DNA from: Candidatus Electrothrix yaqonensis
GTDB taxonomy: Bacteria; Desulfobacterota; Desulfobulbia; Desulfobulbales; Desulfobulbaceae
DNA: 32,000 nt
Reading direction: 5' to 3'
NCBI GenBank assembly: GCA_047651235.1
Contig: CP178758.1
Coordinates: 420,001 to 452,000, forward strand
This document shows, piece by piece, positions 1 to 29,924 of the stretch. Both the position numbers and the translations under genes were made by a program. The first letter of the stretch is position 1; every line of letters starts with the position of its first letter. The notes below the pieces were generated by a model. It was not told the origin of the DNA. It did no database searches and saw only the letters and a program-made list of their open reading frames with translations.

Positions 1-2832
1 CTGTTGAAAGTGCTGTTCTGCTTCAGCAGGACTCTGTGCCATGCAGCAGCGGCCCAGTCTATGCAGAGTGATGCAGCGTTGATAGCTTGATGTCTTCTCC
101 AGCCCAGCCAGGATGTCTTCAACGACCTGCACTGCCGCTACGGGTTGACCGTTCTGCCAAAGCTGCTCACCTAAGTTACTGCGGGAGAGAAACCATGCCT
201 GCGAGCCCACCGCGCCGCCTGCCTTGCTAGTCGCCTCAGTCAGTTCCTCAGCGTCTCGTCGCATTCCGAAAAACCAAAGAAAGCAATTAACATTCTTAGC
301 AAAGTCAACGCTCTCCTCAGCCCTGCCTGTCTGCAAGGCAACATGGACAGCCCGGAGCAGGTTGGGTAACTCACATCGGGCAACGGCACGGGTTGCATTC
401 GGATTTTTATCATCCAGCTTATATAGTCCCTCGGAAAGCCGGTGATACTCCTGCCAATAGCCTTCCAGCAGCTTGTCCTGCTCCTCCTTGCCCAGCTTCT
501 GCCACAAGGCCGGGGCCAAGGTCGGGTGGAAGCGCAGGAAAACGCTTTCTGCTACTCGCTCCGCCAGCATCAGTCCAGACAGGTTCAGATAATGCCGTAG
601 GATCGACCACTCAGAAGGGTATTCTTCCATTCCAGCCACCTTCACTACTATCTCCTCCAATCCCCCACCCTGAAACACCCCCAATCTCGGCAACCATTCC
701 CGGCACCGCTCCGGCAGCCGTTCAAGGGACAATTCCAACGAAGCCAGCAAAGTTCGATCTTCCCGATCAGCAGGCTGCTCCTCCAGCAATGCTTCCAGAC
801 GCTCACCCAACTCCGCCGGACGGCGTTCCTTAAGCTGCGCCGCCAGCAAACCAATGGACAGAGGATGAAAATCTACCTGCTCAAACAGGCTGACCAAGGC
901 ACTGCGCTGCGGCATCCCGAATTTCGGTTCCGGCGGCGGGCGCATCAGCTTGCCGAACCAGTCCAGCGCATCCTGTTCGCCTAAACCCTTGAGGTGCAGG
1001 CATTGGTGGCGAAAGCTGCCTGCGGTGGGATAATCAGGATGATTGAAATCCGGTTGCCGGGAGGTAAGCAGAACCCGACTCTGCCCGGCCTGAGACCAGC
1101 GGGTGGCCGCAGTCAGCAGCTCAGGCAGACCATCCCCATCGGCCAAGCTCTCCAAGTTGTCCAGGATCAGCAGGGTCGGCATCCGCTTCAGGGCCACCTC
1201 AGCAGCCTCCGCATCAGGCAGGCTCTCATCCAGCACAGTCGCCAAGGTGCTGACCGTCACGCCCACCGGATCAATCCCCTGAAACCCAGAAAAGCTGATA
1301 AAGCAGACCCGATGAAACAATCCCGTGCGCAGCAGCCAGTATCCCGCCTCCAACGCAAGGTAGGTCTTGCCCTGACCGCCAAAACCCGTGACAGAAAAAC
1401 GACGGGTTCCCTGCACGGCAAAGGCCCGTTCAATACGCCAGAGTTCAAGGGTTCTGCCGAAGAAACCAGACTCCTGCATCTTTGGCAGGTTATGCTTTTG
1501 ATCCGCTTCCGGGATTTCACTCCCATCCTCCCGGCTCAGCAGAGGACGATTCGGCCCGGTCTGATACAGGGCAGGTAGGAACCAATCGTGCAGCTCCAAG
1601 GTCACGCTCTGATTGCCAGCAAAACCGCGTAGCCGTTCACCCCGCTTGGGATCATAAAACAAAGAAGCACGGGCATCATCCAAGGCCTTGCCCACTGGAT
1701 CGCCCTTGAACAGGCTGCGGTAAAATCGGGCAAACAACAGCCCGGCAGTAGCGACTAAAACGCTGTGCGTCATGGCCAGCACACCGGGAATACCGGCATG
1801 GGTGAGCCAAGCCGCCACACTGCTCATAGCGTCGTCCTCATCCATTGCCGCAGACTGACAGGCGGACAGGACAACCAGTCCGACACGCTGCCGGTGGAAC
1901 AGCTCGCCCAGCAGGCGGGCCTCCACCAATGCCTTTTTGCCCTGCTCATCCTCAAAGAGCAGATAGCCGGTGTGCTTGGGTGTCGCCGTTGTCTCGCCTT
2001 TACTTTCCGCCTCAAGGAGCAACTCTTTCATATACTGCGGGATATGCGTCTTTGCCGCTTCCTTGCCCAGTCCGCCGCTGCGATCAAAAACCCCGTGCCC
2101 GTCAAAATGGATAATATCCACAGCGGGCTGATCCTCATCACGCAGCCGTTTTTCCAGGGCGGAGAGCGTGGCCGGACGGAGAAATTCTACTTCCACCCGC
2201 CGCTCTTCCTGTTGCTCCAAGGCATCCAGCACGGCCTGCGGGTCGGTGCGAGGATTGATGAACCCGGCGTCTTCCGGGCGACTGACAATGAAGAGCAAAC
2301 GCAACACCGGCTTGGGTTCCCGTTTATGGGGCCTGCGTCCCTGTCCGGCCATAGGCAGACGGCGGCGGATAGAGATGCGCGGGGTTTCACCGAACAGAAA
2401 AACACCGCCGGCCGGACGAAGCAGCTCCCAGGGCAGGGAAAGCACTGCCGGATGATCAGCGGCAATAGTGAGCAGGCGGCCTTTTTCCTCCTCGTCCCGG
2501 AAATTGCGGAAGAGTTCGTAGGCCTTGTCAGCCGCCTTCTTAGCCGGCTCGTCATCCGTCCTGAACACGGGCTTGAACACCGCCTCGAACAGATCCGCAC
2601 CCCAACGCCGCAGTTGCTCCCTCGCCCTGTCGGCCCGCTCATCATCCGGCTCGGCCCGGTAGCCGGTGCCGTAGTCTTCCAGATACCAACGGATTTCCTC
2701 CATGTCTTTGTCCGTAAGCGGGTTGACAAAGGCAAAGGCCGAGGTCATGTCCGCATATTCATCATCCGGGATGCGGAGATGGACAGCGACCTGGGTCGGG
2801 TCTGGGAAATTGAGCATCAGTTCTGCAGGCAT
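1..2832 (-). CDS. CHAT (caspase-like protease) / STAND NB-ARC-type P-loop NTPase / TPR-like repeat protein; 3' end runs off the left edge (>=944 aa)
   Basis: My own minus-strand translation from ATG 2832-2830 (GAAGGAA about 8 nt upstream) stays open for all 944 codons to position 1. It has no stop in the window, which explains its absence from the ORF track. CHAT/caspase-type dyad: 'VDIIHFDGHG' (His codon 2095-2097) and 'VVLSACQS' (Cys codon 1858-1860). Walker A 'GFGGQGKT' (1363-1386) and Walker B-like 'TLLILDNLE'. Helical repeats follow toward the C-terminus. The + strand ORFs 393..833, 994..1578 and 1765..2850 are antisense shadows of this gene. Confidence 0.8.
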   Translation of the reverse strand, partial: MPAELMLNFPDPTQVAVHLRIPDDEYADMTSAFAFVNPLTDKDMEEIRWYLEDYGTGYRAEPDDERADRAREQLRRWGADLFEAVFKPVFRTDDEPAKKAADKAYELFRNFRDEEEKGRLLTIAADHPAVLSLPWELLRPAGGVFLFGETPRISIRRRLPMAGQGRRPHKREPKPVLRLLFIVSRPEDAGFINPRTDPQAVLDALEQQEERRVEVEFLRPATLSALEKRLRDEDQPAVDIIHFDGHGVFDRSGGLGKEAAKTHIPQYMKELLLEAESKGETTATPKHTGYLLFEDEQGKKALVEARLLGELFHRQRVGLVVLSACQSAAMDEDDAMSSVAAWLTHAGIPGVLAMTHSVLVATAGLLFARFYRSLFKGDPVGKALDDARASLFYDPKRGERLRGFAGNQSVTLELHDWFLPALYQTGPNRPLLSREDGSEIPEADQKHNLPKMQESGFFGRTLELWRIERAFAVQGTRRFSVTGFGGQGKTYLALEAGYWLLRTGLFHRVCFISFSGFQGIDPVGVTVSTLATVLDESLPDAEAAEVALKRMPTLLILDNLESLADGDGLPELLTAATRWSQAGQSRVLLTSRQPDFNHPDYPTAGSFRHQCLHLKGLGEQDALDWFGKLMRPPPEPKFGMPQRSALVSLFEQVDFHPLSIGLLAAQLKERRPAELGERLEALLEEQPADREDRTLLASLELSLERLPERCREWLPRLGVFQGGGLEEIVVKVAGMEEYPSEWSILRHYLNLSGLMLAERVAESVFLRFHPTLAPALWQKLGKEEQDKLLEGYWQEYHRLSEGLYKLDDKNPNATRAVARCELPNLLRAVHVALQTGRAEESVDFAKNVNCFLWFFGMRRDAEELTEATSKAGGAVGSQAWFLSRSNLGEQLWQNGQPVAAVQVVEDILAGLEKTSSYQRCITLHRLGRCCMAQSPAEAEQHFQQ

Positions 2833-2865
2833 GGTGTGTTCCTTCAATAAATTCTGAACAGCCGC

Positions 2866-4236
2866 TTAGTTTTTCTTCCCCTGCGGTGTAGCACCACCCG
2901 GTGACCCCTGCGGCTTCTCCCCGAACGGCACTGCATTGACCTGAGTGCCGGGACGCAGCATCAGTAGGCCCTCGACAATCACCTTGTCATCGGGCGCAAG
3001 CCCTTTGGTCACCAGCCACTTATCCTCAATGGCCCGCTCAAGCACCAACGGGCGATATTCCGCCTTACTCTCCTTATTAACCACCAGGGCAAAGGGATCA
3101 CCCTTGGAATTGCGCTGCACACCCTGCTGCGGCACCAGGAGCGCCTGCTCCCGGATACCCTCCTGAATCACCGTGCGGACAAACATGCCCGGCAGGAGCA
3201 CTCCGTCCGGGTTGGGAAAAACCGCCCGCAGGGTGACAGAGCCGGTGCTCTGGTCAACCGTGACATCACTGAACTGCAGGGTACCGTCCTGCGGATAGGG
3301 TGTACCGTCCTCCAGCAAAAGCCTAACCTTGTTTTTTCCCGCCCCGTCTTCCTGAATACCGTTTTCCCGGAGGCGCAGCAGTTTGGCCGCAGCTTGGGGA
3401 ATATCCGCATAAATGGGATCCAGCTGCTGGATAATGGACAGCGGGGTCGGCTGATAAGCGGTCACCACCGCGCCTTCAGTTACGTTGGAGATACCTATGC
3501 GGCCGGAGATCGGGGCGGTGACCTTGGTGTAGCCGAGATTAATCTTTGCTGTTTTCACCGCCGCCTCTGCCTGCTGCACAGCAGCCTGGGCAGCGGCAAT
3601 TCCACTACGGCTGCTCTCCACCTGGGCCTGAGCTGCAGTGAGATCCGCCTCAGCCACAGCCGCCCCGGTTGCGGCCTGATCGCGCTGAGCTGCGGAAACA
3701 ATCTTCTGCTTAAACGATTGCTCATAGCGTTTGCTGTCTGCCTTGGCCAGATCCAGCTTGGCCTTAATCCGGCCGATATCAGCTTGGCTGGCCTTGAGCG
3801 CGGCTTTGGAACGATCAACAGATTTTCGGGCCGCAGCAAGGCTGGCTTCGGCATTATCTAATGCTGCCTGAAACGAGGACGGGTCAAGCTGATAGAGGAC
3901 ATCGCCCGCCTGGACATCCGCACCTTCCGTAAACAGACGCTCCTGAATAATACCGCTGACCTGGGGGCGGATCTCCGCAGTACGGAAGGCCGAGGTACGG
4001 CCGGGCAGTTCATCCGTGAGTACGACCTGCTGCGGCTGCATGACGACAAAGGACACTGCCGGGGCAGGCCGCTGCTGCGGTGCGCCCTGCTGCTGTTCTT
4101 TGGCCGAAAACAGACTGATCAGCTGTCCCATCCAGCCGGGCAGTCCCTTCTGATCACAGCCGGACAGAAAGAGGGGACCGGACAAGACGAAGAACAGAAG
4201 GCTCCAAGTGCGCCATGTGCGTAAGAAGATATACAT
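2866..4236 (-). CDS. Efflux RND-type periplasmic adaptor (membrane fusion protein, AcrA/MexA-like)
   Basis: Track ORF 2866..4296. Lipoprotein-type signal 'LFLSGC', a long Ala/Gln-rich alpha-hairpin, and 'YTKVTAPISGRIG...QQLDPIY' motifs typical of MFPs. I moved the start to ATG 4236 because GGAG lies 5 nt upstream and this removes the overlap with the tetR stop at 4268. Confidence 0.85.
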   Translation of the reverse strand: MYIFLRTWRTWSLLFFVLSGPLFLSGCDQKGLPGWMGQLISLFSAKEQQQGAPQQRPAPAVSFVVMQPQQVVLTDELPGRTSAFRTAEIRPQVSGIIQERLFTEGADVQAGDVLYQLDPSSFQAALDNAEASLAAARKSVDRSKAALKASQADIGRIKAKLDLAKADSKRYEQSFKQKIVSAAQRDQAATGAAVAEADLTAAQAQVESSRSGIAAAQAAVQQAEAAVKTAKINLGYTKVTAPISGRIGISNVTEGAVVTAYQPTPLSIIQQLDPIYADIPQAAAKLLRLRENGIQEDGAGKNKVRLLLEDGTPYPQDGTLQFSDVTVDQSTGSVTLRAVFPNPDGVLLPGMFVRTVIQEGIREQALLVPQQGVQRNSKGDPFALVVNKESKAEYRPLVLERAIEDKWLVTKGLAPDDKVIVEGLLMLRPGTQVNAVPFGEKPQGSPGGATPQGKKN

Positions 4237-4267
4237 AGTAACTCCAAGGAATTGTTCTTTGGCATTT

Positions 4268-4954
4268 TCAGGTAGCTGCGGAACATTCAGATTCAAGCAG
4301 TCCCTGAAAAAAAATATTCAGAATGATGTCCGGAGACTCGGGATAAGAATCCCGGCCTTCCAGCCAGTTGGAAAGAAAAGCATTGCACAGGCTGTCCAAA
4401 GCAACCGCTAGGTGATAGGGCTCGGCAATCCGACGGAATCTGCCGTTCTCCATGCCACTGGCAAAAACAACCGCAAGAGCCTTCTGCATCTGATAATGCC
4501 GCTCCCGCAGCTCGTTGTCTAGGCCCGCCTTGATATTAAAACTCGCCCCCCGCGTCTCAGCAAAATAGAGACGGATAAAGGAGACGTTGTGCATAAACAC
4601 CTGCCCCTTGACTTGCACGTAATTGCGCAGCTGGCCGATCTCGTCGTCTGTGGCCTCCAGAGCTGCGCTCAGAGCAACATGAAAACGCTCTGCCTGCTCG
4701 GTAATCAGGGCCTTGTATAGAGCCTCTTTATTTTTGAAAAACTTGTACAGCGTACCGACCGCAAACTCGGCCTGGTCGGCAATCTCCTGCATCGAGGCAT
4801 TATGATAGCCCTTTGCCGAAAAAAGCTGAATCGCTGCAGCAAGCATCTCCTGACGTTGTCGGCGTTTTTCGCGCTCCCGGCGGGAGGGTTTCCTATCCTG
4901 CATCAGAGATGCCTCTTGCTGCCGGTTCAGCATAGTTGCTTCCCGGCATAGCAT
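4268..4954 (-). CDS. TetR/AcrR family transcriptional regulator
   Basis: N-terminal HTH 'ASMQEIADQAEFAVGTLYKFFKNKEALY' is typical of TetR. It lies directly upstream of, and co-oriented with, the MFP gene. Alternative start at ATG 4933 (GGGAAG upstream). Confidence 0.85.
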   Translation of the reverse strand: MLCREATMLNRQQEASLMQDRKPSRREREKRRQRQEMLAAAIQLFSAKGYHNASMQEIADQAEFAVGTLYKFFKNKEALYKALITEQAERFHVALSAALEATDDEIGQLRNYVQVKGQVFMHNVSFIRLYFAETRGASFNIKAGLDNELRERHYQMQKALAVVFASGMENGRFRRIAEPYHLAVALDSLCNAFLSNWLEGRDSYPESPDIILNIFFQGLLESECSAAT

Positions 4955-6666: not shown

Positions 6667-7357
6667 TTATGATCGCCAAAGTAGAACTATATAGACCATG
6701 GTTTCAGCTGATTGCGCCTGTCGTTCATAGTCAATCATCAATCTTCGGTCCCATTGAAACCAGCCGAAAGTTCTTTCAATGATCCAACGTTTCTGTACTA
6801 GTTGAAACCCTTTGCTTTTCAAAGTGGGAGCGATTTCCAGCCGGCATTGAAAGGCGCACCATAAATAGTCGGCCAGATCACCTCGGTAAGCGGCGGCCCA
6901 GACCAGTTTAATGGAAGCAAACCACAAAAAAAGAGTCTGAAAGATAGAAACAGACTGTTTTCCATCCGACAGATTGGCGTCATGAACTTTAACGATCAGC
7001 GGGAAACCAAGGGTATCCGTAACCATGTGGCGTTTTCGCCCTTTCACTTTCTTGTTGCCGTCAACCCCCCCGGGTCTCGGCCATCTGCGAAGCTTTGACG
7101 GATTGACTGTCAATCATGACGGCAGAAGGCTCAGCGTTTTTTCCCTGGTCCTGTCGCAAATCCGTGTGGACTGCCTGCTTTATAAGGAACCAGGTTTCAT
7201 CCTGTTTCCATTTACGGAAATAAGAGTAAATGTCGCGTCCCGTGTGATAATATACCTGCGAGAAGTTGGCCCTTGTTTCTTGCCCGTGAACGTATAACCG
7301 TTCTTTTATCAGAACATAAACTGCCCGGTTTATCATCATGAATATCGCACTGCACAA
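6667..7357 (-). pseudogene. IS5-family transposase relic, frameshifted at a G7 run and degenerate or truncated at the 5' end
   Basis: Two track ORFs (7061..7357 and 6667..7113, both minus) together carry 'YFRKW...IDSQSVKA...RG' and 'DGNKKVKGRKRH..DTLG...IERTFGW', as in IS5-family DDE transposases. The frames switch at C7 on the plus strand (7065-7071, G7 on the coding strand). With G6 the reading 'ETRGVDGNKKVKGRKRH' would be continuous. Confidence 0.75.
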
Positions 7358-8315
7358 AAGAGCGCGTACAACCCCGGCTGTCCGCCGGGAAATTCAGCGC
7401 TCAGAACTTTCCGAACGTAAGTTGTCGGAAAAATACGGCATCAGCAGAAGTACGGTCCGGAAATGGAAATACCGTGATACCGCCGACGATTTTTCGCACA
7501 GGCCGCATAATCTGCACGCGACGCTCACGGATCCGGAAGAAGCCGTGGTTGTTGAGCTGCGCAGAACGCTCCTTCTTCCGATTGACGATCTCCTTGTTGT
7601 TGTGCGTGAATTCATCTGTCCGCATATGTCGCGCTCCGCCCTTGACCGCTGCCTGCGGCGGCACGGAGTCTCAAATCTGAAAGAGCTGATCCCGGCGGAG
7701 GAAAACGAAGAGAACCGTCCGAAAACATTTAAAGATTACGAACCTGGTTTTGTGCATGCCGATATAAAATATCTCCCGCGGATGCCGGACGAAACGGAGC
7801 GGAAATATCTTTTTGTCGGCATCGACAGGGCCACCCGGTGGGTGTACATGGAGATCCGGGCTTCGAAAACTGCGGAATCCGCCCGCTCTTTTCTGAATAA
7901 TCTCATTGGGAAGGCCCCGTTCATGATCTCAAAAATTCTCACCGACAACGGGAAGGAGTTCACCGACCGTTTCTGCCCGTCCGGAGAGCGTGAACCGACC
8001 GGAAATCACGTATTTGATCGGAAATGCGGGGAGAACGGCATTGAGCACCGTCTGATAAAACCGCGCAGACCGCAGACAAACGGCATGGTCGAGCGCTTCA
8101 ACGGCAGAAGTAAAGAAGTTGTTCAGCAGACAAAGTTTGAATCGTCCCGTCAGCTTAAGGAAATACTGCTGCAGTATCTCCGTATTTACAATCACCATAT
8201 TCCGCAGAAAAATCCCGGTCATATCACGCCGGTTGAGGCTCTGAAAAACTGGCGGAAAACGCATCCCGATTTATTTAAAAAATTGGTGTACAATCAGTCG
8301 GGGCTTGACATCTAA
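7338..8315 (+). CDS. IS481-family DDE transposase
   Basis: 325-aa ORF with N-terminal HTH 'GISRSTVRKW' and DDE contexts 'HADIKY', 'LTDNGKEF' and 'TNGMVERFN'. I could not identify terminal inverted repeats by eye, so the element boundaries are unresolved. Confidence 0.85.
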   Translation: MNIALHKRARTTPAVRREIQRSELSERKLSEKYGISRSTVRKWKYRDTADDFSHRPHNLHATLTDPEEAVVVELRRTLLLPIDDLLVVVREFICPHMSRSALDRCLRRHGVSNLKELIPAEENEENRPKTFKDYEPGFVHADIKYLPRMPDETERKYLFVGIDRATRWVYMEIRASKTAESARSFLNNLIGKAPFMISKILTDNGKEFTDRFCPSGEREPTGNHVFDRKCGENGIEHRLIKPRRPQTNGMVERFNGRSKEVVQQTKFESSRQLKEILLQYLRIYNHHIPQKNPGHITPVEALKNWRKTHPDLFKKLVYNQSGLDI

Positions 8316-10592: not shown

Positions 10593-12233
10593 ATGAACAT
10601 TGCAGGATTTGAGAAGGTTGCCCAGTATCTGACTCATCCGTTGGTAGTCTTAGGTTTTGTGCTGATGCTCTTTTTCAAGGTTCACGGAATGCTGCTCAAG
10701 TCAGGAGTGCTGCCCCAGGTGAGCAAGAAAGACGGCGGCGATATAGTCAAGCGGATGCTGCGTTACGGCTTCTGGCTGGGTATAGCTTTAGTGCTGGCGA
10801 TGTTCCTGCTGCAGTTCTCCGGTATCGGGCTGTCTGTCTGGAACAGCTACATGGAAAAGGAAAAGGTGCAGGCGCGTGATGCAAATAAATTGGCACGAGA
10901 GGTTATTGCGCTACAGCAAAAGCAATTGGAGGCCAAGGATGAGCTGATCAAAACCATGACCGAAGCCATTACTGCTCTACCTAAGACAGGTGCACCGCCC
11001 AAAGATATCAATGCAGCCTATCAGGAATTGGAGAAAGGCAACACTGGGAAGGCCCAAGACATCTTTGCCGAACTCGCTGCTGCAAAGGAAGCTGCTGGGA
11101 AGAAGAACAATCAGGAGGCGGCAGAGGCATACCGGCACTTGGGTGCATTGGCCTATATGAACAAACCCAAAGAAGCCCTGGTTGCCTATCAGAAAGCAGT
11201 GCAGCTTGATCCGGATAATACAGAAGGTTTGAACATGCTGGGGCTTCTGCTTCGCCGTACAGGTGAGCTGGGCGAAGCGGAGGAAATGCTCAAGAAAGCC
11301 GTCAAGGTCAATCACGACTCCGGCTGCGAAAAAGGCACAGCCTGCGCGAGCATCAATTTGGGTATTGTGTATAAGACACGCGGTGAGCTGGACAAAGGAG
11401 AACTGCTTTTCAAAGGCGCCCTTGAGACAAGCCGATCCTTAGGAGATAAGGAAGGTATGGCACAAGCCTACACCAATCTGGGTGATCTGTATCGAATACG
11501 CGACAAACTGGAACAGGCGGAACAGATGCAGAAGAAAGCTCTGGAACTCCATGAGGCCCTAGGTAACAGAGAAGGCATGGCTGCTAATTATGCCAATTTG
11601 GGTATTGTGTATGCGATCCACGGCGAGCTGGAGCGGGCGGAACAGATGCACCGGAAAGCTCTGGAACTCAACGAAACATTGGGTAGCAAGGGAGGTATGG
11701 CTGGTCAGTACGGTAATCTGGGCAATATGTATCAGATACACGGCGAGTTGGAACAGGCGGAACAGATGTATAGAAAATCTCTGGAGCTTAACGAAGCCTT
11801 GGGCAACAAGGAAGGCATGGCGCGGAATTATGGAAACTTGGGCAGTGTGTACGCAAAGCGCGGTAACCTAGATCAGGCAGAACAGATGTACTGGAAATCT
11901 CTGGAATTCGACGAAGCCTTGGGCAGTAAAGAAGGTGTGGCAATAGATTACGGCAATCTGGGCATTGTGTATCAGACACGCGGGGAGCTGGGCAAGGCGG
12001 AAGAGATGTACAGGAAAGCTCTGGAATTCAACGAAGCTCTGGGGCGCAAAGAAGACATGGCATCAGCTTATGTTCAGCTGGGCTTTATTTATGGGATGCA
12101 GGGCGAGCTGGACCGGGTAGAAACTTCGTGGAAGAAAAGTCTGAGCTTGTTTCAGGCCATACAGCACCCAAATGCCAATAAGGTACAGCAGTTGCTGGAT
12201 AAGCTGGACCAAATACGCGCCCGCCGCCTGTAA
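10593..12233 (+). CDS. Membrane-anchored tetratricopeptide-repeat (TPR_12-like) protein
   Basis: 546 aa. Two N-terminal hydrophobic helices ('LVVLGFVLMLFF', 'FWLGIALVLAMFLLQF'), then a coiled-coil linker, then about 7-9 TPR units of the form 'EGMA.NYGNLG.VY...GEL.QAEQMY.KALELNEALG'. AGGAG lies 8 nt upstream of the ATG. Confidence 0.85.
   Translation: MNIAGFEKVAQYLTHPLVVLGFVLMLFFKVHGMLLKSGVLPQVSKKDGGDIVKRMLRYGFWLGIALVLAMFLLQFSGIGLSVWNSYMEKEKVQARDANKLAREVIALQQKQLEAKDELIKTMTEAITALPKTGAPPKDINAAYQELEKGNTGKAQDIFAELAAAKEAAGKKNNQEAAEAYRHLGALAYMNKPKEALVAYQKAVQLDPDNTEGLNMLGLLLRRTGELGEAEEMLKKAVKVNHDSGCEKGTACASINLGIVYKTRGELDKGELLFKGALETSRSLGDKEGMAQAYTNLGDLYRIRDKLEQAEQMQKKALELHEALGNREGMAANYANLGIVYAIHGELERAEQMHRKALELNETLGSKGGMAGQYGNLGNMYQIHGELEQAEQMYRKSLELNEALGNKEGMARNYGNLGSVYAKRGNLDQAEQMYWKSLEFDEALGSKEGVAIDYGNLGIVYQTRGELGKAEEMYRKALEFNEALGRKEDMASAYVQLGFIYGMQGELDRVETSWKKSLSLFQAIQHPNANKVQQLLDKLDQIRARRL
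11281..12130 (+). repeat. In-frame 120-bp tandem periodicity (about 7 units) encoding 40-aa TPR units
   Basis: 'aacagatg' starts at 11521, 11641, 11761 and 11881, and 'aagagatg' at 12001, an exact 120-bp period. 'gaaggcatgg'-type motifs recur in phase. Confidence 0.9.
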
Positions 12234-19335: not shown

Positions 19336-20068
19336 GGCGGGACCGGATGTCGGCGCAGTCCTGACGCACAGCAGCCATATGGCCGTGATCGGCAAAGCTG
19401 TACACGGTTTCCCCGGCCCCGATGATCAGGTGATCCAGCAGGGTGATGTTCATGAACGAGCACATCAGGTACAGGGTGCGGGTCAGCTGTTCATCCTGAG
19501 CCGAAGGCTGCAGGCTGCCTGACGGGTGGTTATGGGCGACCACCAGAGATGCGGCATTGCGGGCCAAGGCAGCTTTGAGCAGTTCGCGGGGATAGACGGT
19601 GTTCACGTTGATGGTGCCCTCGGAAAGAATTTCGCTGTCAATCACCGCATGGGCTGCATCCAGATAGACCACCATGAAGACCTCATGCCGGAGACCGCGC
19701 AGGGCATGGATGAGGTAGTCGGCCACATCTTTGGATGAGGTGATGTAGTTCTTTTTCTGAATCCGCTGGCGCAGATAGCGGCGGGCCACGCCCTGGACAA
19801 ACTGGAGGGCAAAGATATTTTTCGGCCCCATGCCCTTAATTTTTTTCAGCACATCCGGATGGGCATCCAGCACTTCGGGCAGAGCGCCGAACCTCTCCAG
19901 CGCATCCCGTGCAGCCTGTTTGCAGTCAGCACGAGGCGTACCAAAGGTCAGGAGCAGCTCAATGGCTTCGGTGTCGGACAGGGCCTCAATCCCCTTTTCC
20001 TGAAATTTATCGCGCAGCCGCTGACGATGGCCGATGCCTTTTTTCGGAGGAGTATCTGCCGGAGTCAT
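19328..20068 (-). CDS. radC: RadC-family JAB/MPN-domain protein
   Basis: 246 aa. Helix-hairpin-helix N-terminus 'IELLLTFGT...GMGPKNIFAL' and JAB motif 'SLVVAHNHPSG'. Confidence 0.88.
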   Translation of the reverse strand: MTPADTPPKKGIGHRQRLRDKFQEKGIEALSDTEAIELLLTFGTPRADCKQAARDALERFGALPEVLDAHPDVLKKIKGMGPKNIFALQFVQGVARRYLRQRIQKKNYITSSKDVADYLIHALRGLRHEVFMVVYLDAAHAVIDSEILSEGTINVNTVYPRELLKAALARNAASLVVAHNHPSGSLQPSAQDEQLTRTLYLMCSFMNITLLDHLIIGAGETVYSFADHGHMAAVRQDCADIRSRLA

Positions 20069-20084
20069 GGCTCCTGGTTTCTGT

Positions 20085-21770
20085 TCAGGCTCTGGTCAGA
20101 TGGCGGTACCGGATGCGGTGGGGCTGGTCCGCTGCCGCGCCCATCCGTTTCCGGTAATCCTGCTCATACTCGGAATAATTGCCCTCAAACCAGACCACCT
20201 GCGAGTCGCCTTCAAAGGCCATGATATGGGTGGCAATGCGGTCCAGGAACCAGCGGTCATGGCTGATGATCACGGCGCAGCCGCCGTAGTTCTCCAGAGC
20301 CTCTTCCAGGGCGCGCAGGGTGTTCACATCCAGATCATTGGTCGGCTCATCCAGGAGCAGGACATTGCCGCCTTCCTTCAGCATCATAGCGAGATGGACC
20401 CGGTTGCGCTGGCCGCCGGAAATTTCCGAAATTTTGTTCTGCTGGGCAGAGCCGCTGAAGTTGAACTTGGCCACGTAGGCCCGTGCATTGACCTCCTGGG
20501 TGCCGAGCCAGATGGTTTCCTGCCCCTCGGAAATCGTCTCAAAGATGGTTTTATTCGAAGCAAGGGCATCCCGTTCCTGATCTACATAGCAGAGCTTCAC
20601 GGTCTCCCCCATACGGATGCTCCCTTCATCCGGCTCCTCCTGACCGGTGATCATCCGGAACAGGGTGGTTTTACCTGCGCCGTTGGGCCCGACTACTCCG
20701 ACAATACCGCCCGGGGGCAGGGAAAAGGAAAGCTCCTCCACCAGAATGCGGTCACCGTAGCTCTTGCAGATGCCCTGGCCTTCGATAACCAGTTTGCCGA
20801 GCCGGGGGCCAGGCGGAATATAAATTTCCATCCCTTTCAGCCGCTCGCCGGTATCCTGATTGAGCAGCTCCTCATACTGGCTGATGCGGGCCTTGGCCTT
20901 GGAACGCCGTCCCTTGGGACTCATGCGGATCCATTCCAGCTCCCGCTGCAGAGTGCGCTGCCGTTCACTCTCTTTTTTCTCCTCTACAGCCAGCCGTTTC
21001 TGTTTCTGGTCCAGCCAGGAGGAGTAATTGCCCTTCCAGGGAATACCGCGTCCTCGGTCAAGTTCCAGAATCCAGCCTGCCACATTGTCGAGAAAATAGC
21101 GATCATGGGTGACGGCAATCACGGTGCCGCTGTACTGCTGGAGATGGTGCTCCAGCCAGGCCACGGACTCGGCGTCCAAATGGTTGGTCGGCTCATCCAG
21201 CAGCAGGATATCCGGCTTTTTGAGCAGGATACGGCAGAGCGCGACCCGGCGTTTCTCGCCGCCGGACAGCACTCCGATCCTGGTTTCAGCAGGCGGGCAG
21301 CGCAGAGCATCCATCGCCATTTCCAGCCTGCTGTCCAGATTCCAGGCATCAACCGCATCCAGCCTGTCCTGCACCTCTCCCTGGCGCTCAATCAGGGCCT
21401 GCATGGCATCATCATCCATGGGCTCGGCAAACTGTTCATTGATCCGGTTATACTCTTCCAGAAGATCAACTGTGTCCTGCACTCCCTGCTCGACAATCTC
21501 CCGTACAGTCTTTTCCGGGTCAAGCTGCGGTTCCTGTTCCAGCAGGTCCACGGTAAACCCCTCAGAAAGAATGCTTTCTCCATCAAATTCGGTATCCTTA
21601 CCGGCAAGAATCCGCAGCAGGGTACTCTTGCCAGACCCGTTCAGGCCCAGCACTCCGATTTTGGCGCCGTAGAAATAGGAAAGGGAGATATCCTTGATGA
21701 CCACCTGATCCTTGTACTTTTTACTGACTTTGATCATCGAATAGATGATCTTGTTCGCTTCGTTTGCCAT
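20085..21770 (-). CDS. ettA: ABC-F ATPase, energy-dependent translational throttle EttA
   Basis: 561 aa with two cassettes: 'GLNGSGKST' with '[11 protein letters not shown]', and 'GPNGAGKTT' with '[11 protein letters not shown]'. N-terminus is '[12 protein letters not shown]'. Confidence 0.9.
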
Positions 21771-22164
21771 TATTTTCCCGTTGTTCTCTGCAGAATTGAT
21801 ATCCCATCCTCCGGCAGCTGTACTGATCGATCTATACTAATCGCATCACTGTCGAAGTTTTTCTGTTTTTTCTGTGATTGTGAAGGTTGCGAAACCGGAA
21901 CAGATACCCTGCTATCTTTTATTTTTATATTTTTATAAAAGTCGCTGCGGAAATCCATCAACCATAAACCGCTTTTCTGCAAGAGTCCGGCCTGTCTCCG
22001 CCATCAGGGAACAGTAATAACAACTCTGCCCTGTGAAGTAAAGAGCATTTCATTTGCGGGCGCGGGCGGGTATGACGCAGTCGAACAATGCCCGGGAAAA
22101 ATCGTGCGGACTTCGTGGGAAGAACAGAAGCTATTGGCAGGTGGAGGGTCAAATCAGTTGATCT

Positions 22165-22344
22165 ATGTTTTTTTCCGGTATATTGTTCCGTTATTTGAAA
22201 CAGTATATCGAAATCAGATGTCGGTACTGCGGAGCCGATGATTTTGTGAAGAACGGACGGAGCGAAAACGGAACACAGCGTTACCGTTGTAATGAATGCG
22301 GAAAAAGTTTCCGTCTTTCGGATAACCCTTTCTTATACCGATGA
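22165..22344 (+). pseudogene. IS1-family transposase N-terminal zinc-ribbon fragment (59 codons), apparently from an internally deleted copy
   Basis: My own translation: 'MFFSGILFRYLKQYIEIRCRYCGADDFVKNGRSENGTQRYRCNECGKSFRLSDNPFLYR*'. The C-x2-C...VKNG...QRY-x-C-x2-C-x-K-S-F pattern matches IS1 InsA. It falls below the track's size cut-off and is followed directly by an IS-end-like sequence. Confidence 0.6.
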
Positions 22345-22353
22345 TCGGTACAT

Positions 22354-22476
22354 TGTCATATATAGCAGTTTCAATTTGAGTGACAATCAATATTTGATTT
22401 TATAGCCATCTATAATCAATAGGTTATCAACCTACAATTGATACTCATTCAAGCTGAAATCGCTATATCCTGTCAT
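22354..22476. repeat. ~125-bp imperfect palindrome formed by two IS1-type terminal sequences facing each other
   Basis: Arms 22360-22391 and 22437-22468 are reverse complements at 25/32 positions by hand alignment. The 45-bp centre holds further sub-palindromes (TGATTTTATAG..CTATAATCA and ATCAATAGGTT..AACCTACAATTGAT). Confidence 0.75.
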
Positions 22477-22650
22477 CTTTTGAGAAACAGATCGTTTTGC
22501 GGTTCAGGCACTTGAGATGCATTCTGAATTTGAGATTTCTCCTCTCTATTTTCCAGGTGTCCGCTTTTCCGAAAATATGTTTCGAGGCCGGAAAGTATTT
22601 CCTGCAGATGTCATCGGAATAGAGTTGTTCCTGAACAACCTCAGCTCCCC
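22463..22650 (-). pseudogene. IS1-family transposase C-terminal fragment
   Basis: The minus strand reads '...WGAEVVQEQLYSDDICRKYFPASKHIFGKADTWKIERRNLKFRMHLKCLNRKTICFSKDDRI*'. The 'IER.N...R..L..L.RKT.CFSK' motif is the IS1 (DDE_Tnp_IS1) C-terminal signature. No upstream DDE core remains; the frame closes near 22690. Confidence 0.65.
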
Positions 22651-23046
22651 AAAAACAACTGCTTAGGAAATGAAAAATGGGCCTGCAAACTTATATGGGA
22701 ACGACTCTAATATACATCAGTCAATCAGCTATTATTTTGAGAGTGGTCGGTATTCGGAAAGTGCCCGGAATGTGCCTGATCAACGGATTTGACCCACCAC
22801 CCAATGCTGATGCTGACACCGGCTTTCAACTCCTAATTCGCATTGAAAGTACAACACTATAATCACCCCGGCTTTTGCTGGTGGTAAATCGACCGGAAAA
22901 TTTTTCCAGGCCGTAATTACTTATATTTACCTTGTATTGCTGCCAAACCGGACCGTCTAATTGTGCCTTTCTTCCTTGACAAATGAGGATAGCTAAAATA
23001 TTACTATTTATTAGTATCCTTAACGTATTCGCAGAGAGGACTGCCT

Positions 23047-23232
23047 ATGCCCGAACAATCTCTGATCGAACAACTTGCCGCATTACTGAACGTAGAAATT
23101 GTTTCTCCGCTGGAGGGCAATGAGGCTCGAAGTCTATGCAAGATTTGTACTGGAATAATATTGTATATTTATTTCGTAGTAGAAAACCACCCCCTCTGGG
23201 GGTGGTCAGAGTTCAACGGCTTTGCCGGTTGA
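23047..23232 (+). CDS. Hypothetical small ORF whose 3' part reads into the IS200 left end (possibly a truncated gene)
   Basis: TTGACA (22976-22981)-N17-TATTAC promoter-like sequence, with GAGAGGA 6 nt before the ATG. No recognisable family. The ORF runs through the IS200 left-end hairpins. Confidence 0.2.
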   Translation: MPEQSLIEQLAALLNVEIVSPLEGNEARSLCKICTGIILYIYFVVENHPLWGWSEFNGFAG

Positions 23233-23827
23233 ACCTCAAAAGCTCATAATAAGCTCCATGACGTGTTGTCCCCACAACAATATCAGGAGCAAATTATGAG
23301 TCGATTTAAAAAACTATCACATACAATTTGGCATTGCCAGTACCATATCGTCTGGGTTCCCAAGTATCGATTAAGAATACTTGAGGGTGAAGTCGGACAG
23401 GAGGTGTTCAATTGTACCTGCGCATTCAGCGAGCAGAAAAAGTGTGAAGTGATTGAGCTGAATGTTCAAAAAGATCATGTTCATATTATCGTGATGATTC
23501 CTCCGAAACTGTCGATTTCGGATTATATGGGCATCATTAAAGGCAGAACCGCGATTCGTGTATTCAACAAGTTTCGCAAATTGAAGAAAAAACCGTACTG
23601 GGGTAATCGTTTTTGGGCACGCGGCTATTGTGTCGATACTGTAGGTTTAGGCGCTGAGAAAATACGTCGCTACGTAAAGTATCAGGAAGAAAAAGAACGC
23701 CAAGCCGAACGTAACCAACTACGGTTATTCTAATTAAATCGGGGACAACACCTCGCCCCCTCTGGGGGCAAGAGGCATCCTTATCCCCTTTTAGGGGTAA
23801 ACCCAATACCACCCCCTTTGGGGGTGG
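23187..23827 (+). mobile_element. IS200-type (IS200/IS605 family, tnpA-only) insertion sequence; minimal extent defined by subterminal hairpins
   Basis: Left hairpins: CCACCCCCtctGGGGGTGG (23187-23205) and GTTCAACGGCtttGCCgGTTGAAC (23211-23234). Right hairpins: GCCCCCtctGGGGGC (23755-23769), a TTATCCC..GGGGTAA stem (~23781-23800), and CCACCCCCtttGGGGGTGG (23809-23827). An 11-bp perfect inverted repeat, GTGTTGTCCCC (23263-23273) / GGGGACAACAC (23741-23751), brackets tnpA. Confidence 0.8.
23296..23733 (+). CDS. tnpA: IS200/IS605-family Y1 (HUH) transposase TnpA
   Basis: 'WHCQYHIVWVPKYR', HUH motif 'KDHVHIIVMIPP', 'NRFWARGYCVDTVG', and the catalytic Tyr region 'IRRYVKYQEE'. Start set at ATG 23296 (AGGAG 7 nt upstream) rather than the track's 23263. 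Confidence 0.9.
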   Translation: MSRFKKLSHTIWHCQYHIVWVPKYRLRILEGEVGQEVFNCTCAFSEQKKCEVIELNVQKDHVHIIVMIPPKLSISDYMGIIKGRTAIRVFNKFRKLKKKPYWGNRFWARGYCVDTVGLGAEKIRRYVKYQEEKERQAERNQLRLF

Positions 23828-25011
23828 ATTATTTATGTGGTTTCCTTGCTGTCATAATGCTGACAGCCGCCAGCGGGGAAGCTCAGTTATTGGACAAGGT
23901 GTCGGTGCATGGCTTCGGCGGCTGGGTGTACGGAAAGACAGATAATGAAAATGAATTTTACGGAGATAAATATTACGGAGACTGGGATACTGACGAAACT
24001 GTAGAGAACTTTAACTTTTTTTTAAATATTCGTACTGAGATAACTGAAGACCTGACAGTATATCTGCAGCCCGGTTTTATCAGTACCGATGAAGAGAGGG
24101 AGACCAAAATAGATTACGCCTTTGTTGAATGGTATCTTTCTGATTTGGTGACTTATCGTGCCGGTAAGATCAGAGTGCCGTTCATGCTGTTTAATGAAAT
24201 TTATGGCGTCGGAACAGTCCGGCCTTTTTTGTTTCTCCCCCAAGGAATATACAATCCCCGTATCCAGATACCAGAATATTATCAAGGGGCCGGGATGAGA
24301 GGGGATTTTTTTGACAATTATTCATGTTGCTGTAACTGGCAGTTATCCTATGACATCTTCGGAGGATCTACATTTCTGTATGAGAGCAACGACGTATATA
24401 ACGTGACCGACATTGAGCGGTATTCAATTAAAGGCATGCTGGGCGGCAGACTGGTACTTCATCCCCCGGTCGATAGACTGCAGCTCAGTCTTTCTTCCTA
24501 TACTGGAGAACAGGAAGCACGCCGAAATGATGGGGGAGTGATCACAGAATTTGAATTCGGTACAGCATTATTTATAGGAGGATCAATAGAATATCTTAAC
24601 GACAAATGGAACCTCCGGAGTGAATATATGGTAGCTGAGCGTGACGAAAATCAAATCGGCGGGGTTGGGGACGCAGAGTACACAAGTTGGTATGCTGAAG
24701 CAGCGTACCGACTGACGGAACACTGGCAGCTGGCAGCCCGTTACGAGGAGATTGAGAATCCGGACAATAATCCCTATCCCTGTGAGGACAAAAGACTGTC
24801 CTCTGATCATACGCTCAAAAAAAGCACGGAGTGGACTATAGGGCTGAACTATTGGGTTTCCCCGAACTTGGTGGTGAAATGTTCGACAACCTTTATTCGG
24901 GACAACGAGAATGCCCGGCCGACCAGCTGGATTAATATAAGAAATCCGCAGGAATATCCTTTTGAAGAAGAAACCGTACTGACACTGATTGGTGTACAGT
25001 TCAGTTTTTGA
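23818..25011 (+). CDS. Outer-membrane beta-barrel porin (phosphate-selective porin O/P-like); 5' end abuts or overlaps the IS200 right end
   Basis: 397-aa ORF with alternating beta-strand pattern. 'IDYAFVEWYLSDLVTYRAGKIRVPFML' resembles the Porin_O_P core, and the C-terminal 'IGVQFSF' ends in Phe, as in OMP signatures. The N-terminus 'GVDYLCGFLAVIMLTAASGEAQ' looks like the hydrophobic core of a signal peptide lacking its charged N-region. The only available start (TTG 23818 or GTG 23824) lies inside the IS hairpin. Confidence 0.6.
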   Translation: MGVDYLCGFLAVIMLTAASGEAQLLDKVSVHGFGGWVYGKTDNENEFYGDKYYGDWDTDETVENFNFFLNIRTEITEDLTVYLQPGFISTDEERETKIDYAFVEWYLSDLVTYRAGKIRVPFMLFNEIYGVGTVRPFLFLPQGIYNPRIQIPEYYQGAGMRGDFFDNYSCCCNWQLSYDIFGGSTFLYESNDVYNVTDIERYSIKGMLGGRLVLHPPVDRLQLSLSSYTGEQEARRNDGGVITEFEFGTALFIGGSIEYLNDKWNLRSEYMVAERDENQIGGVGDAEYTSWYAEAAYRLTEHWQLAARYEEIENPDNNPYPCEDKRLSSDHTLKKSTEWTIGLNYWVSPNLVVKCSTTFIRDNENARPTSWINIRNPQEYPFEEETVLTLIGVQFSF

Positions 25012-25063
25012 CAGTTTGTGAAGAAAAAACATATTTATTTCTTGTAGTTCATGAGGAGGAACT

Positions 25064-25540
25064 ATGAAATATCAAAAGTACCTTACCATTTTTATCCTGC
25101 TGTCCGGGCTGTTCGGATCTGCCTGTCCGGCTGTTGCGGAAAAAGCGTTGCAGTTTATTGTCAATTACGCTAATCCCAACGAGAGTATTGCACTGCAAAA
25201 TATGAAGAAAATGTTTATAGGGAGAGGTAGAACTTGGCCGAAGTCCAAGAAAAAAGTTGCCCTTGTGGATCTGCCTGATGATTCTCCGATCAGAAAGGAG
25301 TTTTCAGAGAAGGTTCTGGGCAGATCGGTCGCACAGATGGAAATCCATTGGCAGAAGCGGATTTTCGCAGCAAGAGGGAGGGCTCCTAAGAAAATGGCCA
25401 ATGAACAGGAGGCGATTAAGTATATGGCCAAGAAATCGGGAGGACTTGGTTATCTTGCCGGAAAGACCGAAACAAGTGAACCGGACATCAAGGAGCTGGA
25501 TGTAGAATCAATACCTTGTCCGGATGATATCAACTGGTAG
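25064..25540 (+). CDS. Small secreted PstS/PBP-like-fold protein
   Basis: 158 aa. Signal peptide 'LLSGLFGSACPAVA', and GAGGAGGA before the ATG. 'IALQNMKKMFIGRGRTWP...VALVDLPDDSPIRKEFSEKVLG...EQEAIKYMAKKSGGLGYL' follows the pattern of short phosphate-binding-protein-like domains. Confidence 0.5.
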   Translation: MKYQKYLTIFILLSGLFGSACPAVAEKALQFIVNYANPNESIALQNMKKMFIGRGRTWPKSKKKVALVDLPDDSPIRKEFSEKVLGRSVAQMEIHWQKRIFAARGRAPKKMANEQEAIKYMAKKSGGLGYLAGKTETSEPDIKELDVESIPCPDDINW

Positions 25541-25554
25541 GTAAAGGTGAAGGT

Positions 25555-26760
25555 GTGGTACGATATCGAAGGCTCCGTGCAGTCCTGACCGGGTTGTGCT
25601 GTATCCTGCTGCTGCCTGCACCCGGTACAGCGGAAGATACAGCAAAAAAGCAGCAACATCCGCCATATATTCGGCTGGCACTTACCGAGCCTGTAACCTC
25701 TCTTGATCCTGCTGATAAAGACTGTGATCGGGAGATCATCCCCCTGCTGTTTGCCGGTTTAACCGAAATCAATACTAACGCTGGCGTAAACGAAAACTGC
25801 TGATTCTGGAAAAAAATCCGTTCTATTTTGATGCAGAAAAGGTACAGATTCCGGAAATCCGTTACATGATGCTGCCCTCTTCAGAAATTGCACTGGAAAT
25901 GTACAAACATAATCAGCTTGATTCTATACCTTTCTTCCATAAAAAGCAGTGGGTTGCCATCAGAAAAGTTCCTGGCTTGGCAAAGCAGTTACCCGATAAG
26001 CCCACCAAACAGGGAAGATATTATCTTGGGTTTGATCACAGTCGTCCTCCATTTGATGATGCTGATGTCCGTCGGGCAATTGCAACAGCTGTTGACAAAC
26101 AGTTTATCTTGAACAAAGCAGTGGGAATCATTGGTGATGTCTCTGATGCATTCATCAACCGCTCTGCTGTCGAATCTGATTCTGATACGAAGAGCTGCCC
26201 ACCTAAATTGGATACGGAACGGGCAAGGAGAATCCTTGCCTTTGCCAAGAAGAGGCTCTATCCTGAGGGAGAAGATTTTCCAGAAATCTCTATCAGCGGC
26301 TCATCTGTTGATGTTGAGATTGTACAGCTGATTCAGAAAGTGCTGAAAAAAAATCTCGGCATTACGGTAGTACAGAAAAAAAAAGTTGAGGACTTTAGCA
26401 CTCCCTCACACCTTTTTGTGGTCAAAAAACAGGCAGAATATGCCCATCCTCTTTATTTTCTGGCCGAATTTATTAATACTGATGGAAACTTACATTGGAA
26501 CAGCCAGAAGTATATAGAATATAAAGAACTTTTTAACCGTGCGTTAAAAGAAAAGGATTCTTCTCAGCAGAGAATATTTTATGAGGAGGCGGAACAGATA
26601 CTTTGTAAAGAGTACGTCATTATCCCTCTTTTTTTTTCAAAATGTTGCATTCTTAAAGAAACCGTGGATCCGAGGTGTGTATTCGCATTCGCGGAGCAGT
26701 GTACAGCCGATACATATGTGGTCGTTCGGGGAGTAAGGAACGGTTTCATCAGCTTGGTTC
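25555..26760 (+). pseudogene. Family-5 ABC substrate-binding protein (OppA/DppA-like) with an internal deletion and frameshift
   Basis: ORF 25555..25803 (GTG start) gives a signal peptide plus 'IRLALTEPVTSLDPADKD..IIPLLFAGLTEI'. Homology resumes in another frame at ~25795 with 'LILEKNPFYFDAEKVQIPEIRYMMLPSSEIALEMYKHNQLD...YLGFDHSRPPFDDADVRRAIATAVDK...YEEAEQILCKEYVIIPLFF'. About 170 aa of the expected middle are missing. The 3' ORF runs on to 26909, over the next gene's start. Confidence 0.7.
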
Positions 26761-26763
26761 GGT

Positions 26764-27471: not shown

Positions 27472-27492
27472 TATATGGACAGATTGGAAAGA
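27443..27492 (+). repeat. Perfect 25-bp tandem duplication (ATGATATATGGACAGATTGGAAAGA x2) causing a frameshift
   Basis: 27443-27467 and 27468-27492 are identical. Because 25 is not a multiple of 3, the duplication shifts the frame. Deleting one copy fuses 26764..27471 and 27443..29812 in frame, reading '...INDIWTDWKDEADSVAVFIAAG...'. Confidence 0.95.
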
Positions 27493-29812: not shown

Positions 29813-29924
29813 AGCTCTAACTGCTGCAGTTTTATTCTGACGCAACGATCAACGATGCTTCCAGTATCAGGCATTTGTTTTTGAGTTGTGAGTTTCAAAC
29901 TCTAATTCACTTCACAATGAACAA

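Follow-up and report, generated by a model that had tools for sequence, protein, structure and literature searches.

The DNA analysed here, referred to throughout as the window, is a 32,000-nt stretch of the Candidatus Electrothrix yaqonensis genome (GenBank assembly GCA_047651235.1, contig CP178758.1, positions 420,001 to 452,000 of the forward strand). At its left edge lies the 5' portion of a gene for an NLR-like protein, predicted to join a caspase-like CHAT domain to an NB-ARC-type STAND NTPase and to tetratricopeptide repeats (TPRs). Six-frame translation of window positions 1-3000 revealed one stop-free frame on the minus strand that runs from an ATG at position 2832 to position 1 (1..2832, the first 944 codons of the gene), with an in-frame stop 12 codons 5' of the ATG. 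Because no stop codon falls inside the window, this open reading frame (ORF) is absent from the program-made ORF list, and an earlier note, written from the sequence alone, had proposed it as a gene that the list had missed. The ORF is real, far beyond chance. Its 944-residue product is 100% identical to P0001, a 'CHAT domain-containing protein [Candidatus Electrothrix sp. YB6]' of a cable bacterium (hereafter YB6), a homologue search at E<=1e-5 returned 1334 proteins, and the CHAT profile scores 92.6 bits. The four motifs quoted in the note, together with its residue numbers H246 and C325, all proved correct when their positions were checked in the translation: HFDGHG (aa 242-247, window 2092-2109), LSACQS (aa 322-327, 1852-1869), the Walker A motif GFGGQGKT (aa 483-490, 1363-1386) and the Walker B motif LLILDNLE (aa 554-561, 1150-1173), each on the minus strand, which the note had not specified. 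The ancestral gene has about 1272 codons and extends about 1 kb further, past the left window edge.

Domain architecture and relatives of the NLR-like protein

The predicted domain order is an N-terminal domain, CHAT, an Apaf-1/NB-ARC-like STAND NTPase, and a helical arm followed by TPRs; coordinates of all parts refer to the minus strand. The succession of CHAT, STAND NTPase and helical repeats had been proposed before, and it is supported by hidden Markov model (HMM) matches, by two AlphaFold models searched with Foldseek, and by the invariance of the catalytic residues. Conservation was scored in an alignment of 49 homologues, in which H246, G247, C325, D558-E561, R592, H656-S659 and H769-P770 are invariant. 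The stretch G483-K489 is likewise invariant except for Q487, which, together with T490, is nearly so. The AlphaFold2 model of the 944 residues, built with the 49 homologues, has a predicted local distance difference test score (pLDDT) of 78.9, and a separate model of residues 1-450 has a pLDDT of 81 and a predicted template modelling score (pTM) of 0.83. A fold search was needed because sequence and profile searches of the PDB were uninformative: a profile search with the full alignment was swamped by TPR matches, and single-domain phmmer searches gave no match for the CHAT half and weak matches to plant NLRs on the NTPase side.

The N-terminal domain (aa 1-113, 2494..2832) is modelled as a beta-hairpin and three helices with a pLDDT of approximately 80-93, and contains the conserved motifs EIRWYLExY and EPDDxRA. 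The Pfam search returned no match within residues 1-113. Among 1.84 billion proteins, 215 representatives match this domain, and they are solely the N-termini of proteins of approximately 1250-1500 aa or short fragments; we therefore rejected the idea that it also occurs in other protein contexts. Judged from these matches, the domain is a family-specific appendage. The region without an assignment is shorter than the ~170 residues given earlier and spans ~95-113 residues, as the Pfam CHAT match begins at residue 114.

The CHAT domain, a caspase-like cysteine protease domain (aa 114-440, 1513..2493), matches PF12770 over residues 114-397, well above the gathering cutoff of 24 bits. Its putative catalytic dyad lies in the expected HG and (A)C contexts, with H246 (codon 2095-2097) in HFDGHG and C325 (codon 1858-1860) in LSACQS. 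Foldseek searches with the model of residues 1-450 returned SAVED-CHAT (8tl0, 1e-7), Csx29 (8eey), DdvA (8rot), a CHAT anti-sigma factor, and separase (5mz6), followed by MALT1 and caspase-4. Profile, dyad and caspase/hemoglobinase fold are thus those of a CHAT peptidase, and proteolysis is predicted. Peptidase_C14 (PF00656, the metacaspase/orthocaspase family) was absent among the Pfam matches at E<=1.

The NTPase (aa 461-780, 493..1452) comprises a nucleotide-binding domain, helical domain 1 and a winged-helix domain. In addition to the Walker motifs it carries a TTR-like sensor-1 motif, LLTSR (aa 588-592, 1057-1071), a GLPL-like motif, FHPLSIGLLA (aa 655-664, 841-870), and an MHD-like motif, RFHPTL (aa 767-772, 517-534); K489, D558, R592 and H769 are among the residues at these sites that are invariant in the 49 sequences. 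The best PDB matches to the 944-residue model were two Apaf-1 structures, 3sfz and 1z6t (E 1e-10), followed by the TPR-STAND protein PH0952 (6mfv), CED-4, the ZAR1, NRC4 and NRC3 resistosomes, and Avs3; the TM scores of these whole-protein matches are low owing to the multi-domain query. In a phmmer search of PDB sequences, FHPLSIGLLA and the helices after it aligned to plant NLRs of the ADR1 family over their GLPL-to-MHD region (E 0.009). The Pfam NACHT model (PF05729) scored 20.1 bits, below its cutoff of 26.7, and NB-ARC (PF00931) gave no match at E<=1. Fold and motifs, not HMM matches, point to a place with the Apaf-1/NB-ARC proteins (AP-ATPase clade) rather than with NACHT. Of the STAND module suggested in the earlier note, the NTPase motifs and fold were confirmed, but neither profile recognises it above its cutoff. 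The remainder of the in-window protein (aa 781-944, 1..492) is all-helical in the model and is assigned to a helical arm and the first TPRs by TPR_12 matches. In the Pfam search of the 944 residues the TPR_12 match at the protein end is weak, and the array runs on outside the window.

Homologues in Electrothrix and Electronema share 60-90% identity with the protein. At 50-56% identity follow filamentous cyanobacteria (Nostoc, Calothrix, Tolypothrix, Scytonema and Coleofasciculus), Desulfococcaceae and gammaproteobacterial metagenome-assembled genomes (MAGs). Family members are typically 1250-1275 aa long; P0001 has 1072 aa. The NLR family occurs in cable bacteria, Desulfonema, Pseudanabaena and Nostocales, and the link to filamentous, multicellular bacteria drawn earlier holds for the taxonomy of the homologues as well as for the loci of the small gene described below. 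A search of NCBIfam with the NLR gave weak generic matches alone.

The small partner gene and the state of the YB6 copies

In the NLR clade the gene is normally paired with a small gene for a protein of ~140 aa, and the two make up a two-gene system. This gene adjoins the NLR in all eight of the other NLR loci examined. It lies upstream in five of them (L006 9579-9998, L002 9519-9998, L005 9449-9871, L008 5223-5645 and L044 5361-5780) and downstream in convergent orientation in three from Nostocales (L004 14444-14881, L043 10273-10710 and L045 10454-10891). At the cable-bacteria loci of P0010, P0019, P0002 and P0009, a gene for 139-159 aa ends 2-3 nt before the NLR start (129 nt in L005), and the small proteins of these loci are 55-73% identical to one another. 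Desulfococcaceae HSG9 has the upstream arrangement as well; the partner is convergent and 3' of the NLR in Calothrix PCC 7507, Nostoc SO-36 and one Tolypothrix/Calothrix genome. The reverse test gave the same picture. Among the 33 loci found in a genome-wide scan with the small-protein alignment, an NLR lies directly downstream on the same strand in 26, and at five of the seven exceptions the contig ends less than 600 nt past the small gene, which leaves the NLR present in 26 of 28 informative loci.

The partner family ranges over Desulfobulbaceae, Desulfobacterales, one gammaproteobacterial MAG and cyanobacteria. A conserved helix opens the small protein; a linker whose length varies, a semi-conserved P-[ED]-[RK] site and a conserved C-terminal half complete it. 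This half closes with a strongly hydrophobic helical segment (KD19 maximum 1.9-2.6 in 18 of 18 members) that has a central MGFSGN patch. Searches of Pfam, NCBIfam and PADLOC returned no family for the small protein, save a weak match of the Calothrix member to PADLOC PDC-M35B (E 7e-4), and a literature search found no mention of PDC-M35. Neither the NLR nor the 18 small proteins matched CATRA or CATASP, models whose presence in the searched release is unconfirmed. Both the partner family and its strict coupling to the NLR clade seem to be uncurated in the databases searched.

In relatives the pair of small gene and NLR sits at varied sites, several of them beside toxin-antitoxin (TA) modules (PIN, HicAB). 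In Pseudanabaena (loci L024-L038), two-gene TA-like cassettes lie between partner and NLR and differ among genomes; examples are those at L027 8594-9098, L025 8543-9387 and L028 8680-9529, which encode proteins of 80+89, 135+146 and 142+137 aa. The varied sites, TA neighbours and cassettes fit a mobile accessory gene. Uniform core-genome synteny, which the earlier note had named as an argument against a conflict module, is not what the relatives display: the sites vary, with partial synteny of the TetR-MFP-small-NLR string within Electrothrix.

At the window locus the partner has been lost. Neither the 32-kb window nor contig L001 gave a tblastn match to the small gene. In E. laxa (L012) and in L013 the gene order is TetR, membrane fusion protein (MFP), small gene, NLR, and YB6 is syntenic with them: it aligns with E. 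laxa over the TetR and MFP genes, the NLR and the downstream spacer, but has 33 nt in place of the approximately 900 nt in which the small gene lies. These 33 nt, from the MFP stop to the NLR start (2833..2865, minus strand), correspond to the ~900 nt with the partner gene in L012 and L013 and are, from the alignment, the scar that the partner deletion left. The HlyD/RND-type MFP gene (2866..4236, minus strand) is syntenic with that of E. laxa and its product shares 80% aa identity; the gene for the TetR-family regulator (4268..4933, minus strand; 80% identity to E. laxa) is the first of the TetR-MFP-(small)-NLR string. The TetR and MFP pair has no adjoining pump gene (window 2866-4954, minus strand; L012 5568-7588; L013 1787-3804; ~80% aa identity), and in three Electrothrix genomes it stands directly upstream of the small-NLR pair, or of the NLR in YB6. 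A strong candidate sigma-70-like promoter (11/12) precedes the TetR gene (5046-5019, minus strand). Read-through transcription of the NLR is plausible because no promoter-like or terminator-like site was found in the interval between MFP and NLR; the two genes are probably co-transcribed, and a plausible ribosome-binding site lies upstream of the NLR.

Outside the window, Logan contig L001 covers the NLR gene and contains P0001, then 14 nt, then a 201-aa ORF of TPRs. The last ~59 residues of P0001 are out of frame, and the homology is carried on in a different frame. The cause is a +2 insertion at gene offset 3042 (L001 ~6827-6828), 211 nt past window position 1, where the sequence context reads GCGCGC. 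It is the sole indel of YB6 relative to the orthologue in L006 that is not divisible by three, and none of four orthologues has it. At the nucleotide level, homology to the single-ORF orthologues begins at the ATG, ends with the stop codon of the 201-aa ORF and thus takes in both YB6 ORFs. Unless it is a sequencing error, the insertion splits the ancestral gene of ~1272 codons within the TPR array into ORFs of 1072 and 201 aa. The TPR array does continue past the window, in keeping with the C-terminal repeats that the earlier note had described, but it is frameshifted. That note had also proposed the gene as a candidate conflict or cell-death module; the window copy is partner-less and frameshifted, so it is probably impaired and not active.

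YB6 has a second, paralogous locus of this system (L009 10001-11364). There the gene for the small-family protein P0298 is intact, and 2 nt after it begins an ORF whose first ~70 residues are the N-domain of an NLR, fused to a PDDEXK_2 transposase-like protein. The window NLR is not the lost body of the L009 NLR, for it has its own N-domain, which shares only 48.6% identity with the remnant in L009. Each YB6 system is thus broken, and the damage is complementary: the window keeps the NLR and L009 the small gene. The L009 unit is flanked by an OEP gene on one side and by MacA/MacB-like efflux genes on the other. Both YB6 loci of the NLR/partner system adjoin components of efflux pumps.

Proposed mechanism, alternatives and related systems

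Within the CHAT-STAND-TPR class, which has been known for a long time, the window gene is an ordinary member. We consider it fairly probable that it is the NLR half of a two-gene death system and that the YB6 copy is broken; this copy is most likely a decaying orphan, which at best works in trans with the surviving small gene. By analogy with better-studied systems, an intact pair would respond to a ligand that binds the TPR array. The NB-ARC module would then oligomerise in an NTP-dependent manner, as established for Apaf-1, NLRs and Avs, and the CHAT domains, brought close together, would be activated by proximity. The active CHAT domain would cut the small partner, plausibly near the P-[ED]-[RK] site; released in this way, the hydrophobic C-terminal part may damage the membrane and kill the cell. 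The outcome could be abortive infection or altruistic death within the filament. In the earlier note the protease itself was the terminal effector; this is probably not the case, and the linked ~140-aa partner is the likelier death effector or substrate.

Gasdermin-protease pairs and Craspase with Csx30 are precedents for a protease with a partner, further to the EACC1-caspase system. This two-gene system was predicted by Kaur et al. (2020, eLife) as 'System 4' (PMC7159879). KrEACC1 is encoded upstream of a caspase-Avs12 fusion (KrAvs12) and is cleaved by it into an inhibitory N-terminal and a pore-forming C-terminal fragment; the trigger of the KrEACC1-KrAvs12 pair is a phage tail-connector protein (Evans et al. 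2025, 10.1101/2025.11.14.688446). Shared with the system described here are a small 5' gene with a conserved hydrophobic helix and a central patch of small residues, a 3' gene for a caspase-superfamily protease with STAND and repeat regions, enrichment in multicellular bacteria and, as proposed here, the logic that leads from sensor to protease to a cleaved small membrane toxin. The partner of our NLR clade differs in its length (~140 aa versus 114 aa) and has no detectable homology to EACC1, the NLR has CHAT with an additional N-domain and an Apaf-1-like STAND module with TPRs instead of Avs12, and the window copy lacks a partner.

Several other systems share parts of this design. Craspase (type III-E, in which the TPR-CHAT protein Csx29 cuts Csx30) and SAVED-CHAT/PCaspase provide the top structural matches to the protease half, and in them, too, a sensor-activated CHAT protease cuts a dedicated partner. 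What activates them, however, is crRNA-guided binding of a target or a cyclic oligoadenylate rather than a STAND NTPase, and their partners are unrelated. The Apaf-1/CED-4 apoptosome and the plant NB-ARC resistosomes match the NTPase best in structure and resemble our protein in the Walker A and B, TTR-, GLPL- and MHD-like motifs, in a repeat sensor C-terminal to the NTPase and in a caspase-type protease output. Here, in contrast, the protease is fused N-terminally in cis and not recruited through a CARD, the repeats are TPRs rather than WD40 or LRR, and the Pfam NB-ARC HMM does not match. With Avs the protein shares the layout of effector, STAND module and repeat sensor, and Avs3 is among its fold matches, but it matched no PADLOC Avs model and its family is not known to confer phage defence. 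CHAT-NOD-TPR architectures in multicellular bacteria were reportedly described by Koonin and Aravind in 2002. Bacterial NLRs frequently begin with a CHAT domain (Dyrka et al. 2020, 10.1101/2020.01.06.895854). Such all-in-one proteins have the same domain order and the same bias to filamentous cyanobacteria and other multicellular bacteria; they have been described as self-contained, whereas the clade studied here has an N-domain of its own and an obligately linked small gene.

A number of observations weigh against the explanation that we favour. The cleavage, toxicity and trigger proposed for the small partner are all drawn from analogy, and the analogy to EACC1 is organisational only: the EACC1 model PF19953 matched none of the 18 small proteins at E<=10 (the KrEACC1 positive control scored 28.2 bits), and hhalign gave a probability of 0.9% for the small protein against EACC1, so that we rejected the partner as an EACC1 protein. 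When pairwise identity was compared by domain, the hypervariability of the TPRs that would mark an arms race was not found, the mean being 53% in the TPR region versus 61-64% in the catalytic domains. Kinship with Avs- and NLR-type antiphage proteins, raised in the earlier note, found little echo in PADLOC-DB v2 (Avs, bNACHT and others), to which the NLR gave weak generic matches only (TPR, 5.7e-5; chat, 1.3e-3); no defence model matched beyond these, and a Calothrix homologue matched SAVED_CHAT (9e-6). An error of sequencing or assembly could also account for the frameshift: the NCBI and Logan assemblies both contain it, though perhaps from the same reads. Finally, the 944 in-window codons are intact and keep every catalytic residue, so that either the decay set in recently or the cell still uses the protein.

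One alternative, in line with the earlier note, is a functional, self-contained NLR defence protein whose CHAT domain is itself the death effector and degrades cell proteins, with the partner needless and the frameshift a sequencing error. Catalytic residues kept over 944 codons, a plausible ribosome-binding site with a read-through promoter upstream, and the frequency of CHAT-NOD-repeat proteins in multicellular bacteria (Dyrka et al., 10.1101/2020.01.06.895854) all agree with it. We nevertheless regard it as improbable, since the partner adjoins the NLR in 8 of 8 other NLR loci and, in reverse, the NLR follows it in 26 of 28 informative loci, spanning three phyla and both gene orders, a linkage that argues that the partner is functionally required; moreover, the +2 insertion is present in two assemblies and lies in a GC-dinucleotide context, not in a homopolymer. 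The partner might instead restrain or inform the NLR, as an inhibitor or membrane-anchored regulator (compare securin with separase and CED-9 with CED-4) or as a membrane sensor; once YB6 had lost it, the NLR would have become dangerous, and the frameshift would have been selected as a means of disarming it. Tight linkage in either gene order is compatible with such a role, Kaur et al. 2020 first suggested that the transmembrane helix of EACC1 acts as a sensor, and partner loss together with an inactivating frameshift in one gene fits a TA-like dependence. Against this stand the studied analogues EACC1, gasdermin, Pepco and Csx30, which are substrates or effectors, and the layout of a variable linker before a conserved hydrophobic C-domain, which resembles a cleavable pro-toxin; we hold this role to be rather doubtful.

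The even conservation of the TPRs and the lack of a PADLOC match also keep a non-defence reading alive, in which the NLR is a developmental or housekeeping switch that governs regulated proteolysis, or cell death for filament fragmentation or differentiation, in the manner of HetF. HetF is a CHAT-family protease that reportedly cuts PatU3 in Anabaena, and its protease activity (PMC9457339) would be the precedent. The family is confined to filamentous taxa, and its 1250 residues are evenly conserved up to and including the TPR sensor, which suggests a conserved, possibly endogenous ligand. Variable position, TA and insertion sequence (IS) neighbours, several paralogues per genome and lineage-specific loss are, however, traits of accessory conflict genes, and 50-55% identity across phyla suggests horizontal transfer; we give this switch a slim chance. 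Put forward tentatively is an extension of the two-gene death system in which the ~140-aa partners would be an unrecognised family of protease-licensed membrane death effectors, specific to a CHAT-NB-ARC-TPR clade that is exchanged horizontally among cable bacteria, Desulfonema-like Desulfobacterales, Pseudanabaena and Nostocales. The partner would then have no sequence kinship with EACC1, gasdermin, Pepco or CATASP, and the two YB6 halves may act in trans; if they do, YB6 is a natural test of cross-compatibility.

Cable bacteria form centimetre-long multicellular filaments, in which the death of a single cell affects the whole electrical conductor. NLR-type suicide modules in these organisms bear on how multicellular prokaryotes meet infection or damage, and our literature search found no paper that ties CHAT or caspase proteins to cable bacteria. 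The two-gene clade with its uncurated hydrophobic partner can be compared directly with the model of protease-activated pore formers, for which the intact pairs of E. halotolerans, E. laxa and Calothrix PCC 7507 are better suited than the window copy.

Surroundings of the gene in the window

The association with a defence island that had been considered for this gene does not apply to the window, where its neighbours are housekeeping genes and two IS fragments. Besides the TetR-MFP pair, the window encodes DUF418, ThrC, a generic TPR protein, DapA, DapF and radical-SAM proteins, as well as RecA, HemN, RadC, an ABC-F protein, a porin and an MscS channel. The IS fragments are a DDE_Tnp_1 transposase fragment (6667-7113, minus strand) and an rve integrase ORF (7338-8315, plus strand). 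The GC content is 0.38-0.46 at ~4-8 kb versus 0.55-0.59 in the flanks, and both IS ORFs lie in or beside this low-GC stretch, which suggests an insertion hotspot close to the NLR.

The generic TPR protein (10593-12233, plus strand) has 546 residues and consists almost wholly of TPR_12 repeats (209 bits). It was considered as a displaced fragment of the NLR and rejected, the similarity being 26% and at the level of the repeats only. A second low-GC block (0.43-0.48, versus ~0.55-0.59 elsewhere) occupies positions 21000-30000 and contains a phosphate-porin-like gene, an SBP_bac_5 fragment and the gene for an MscS-family channel of 789 aa; the block may stem from horizontal transfer. A 634-aa ORF at 20034-21938 (plus strand) has no Pfam match and runs fully antisense to the gene for the ABC-F ATPase (20085-21770, minus strand; ABC_tran, 180 bits); it is almost certainly spurious, a shadow ORF of the kind that arises in GC-rich DNA.

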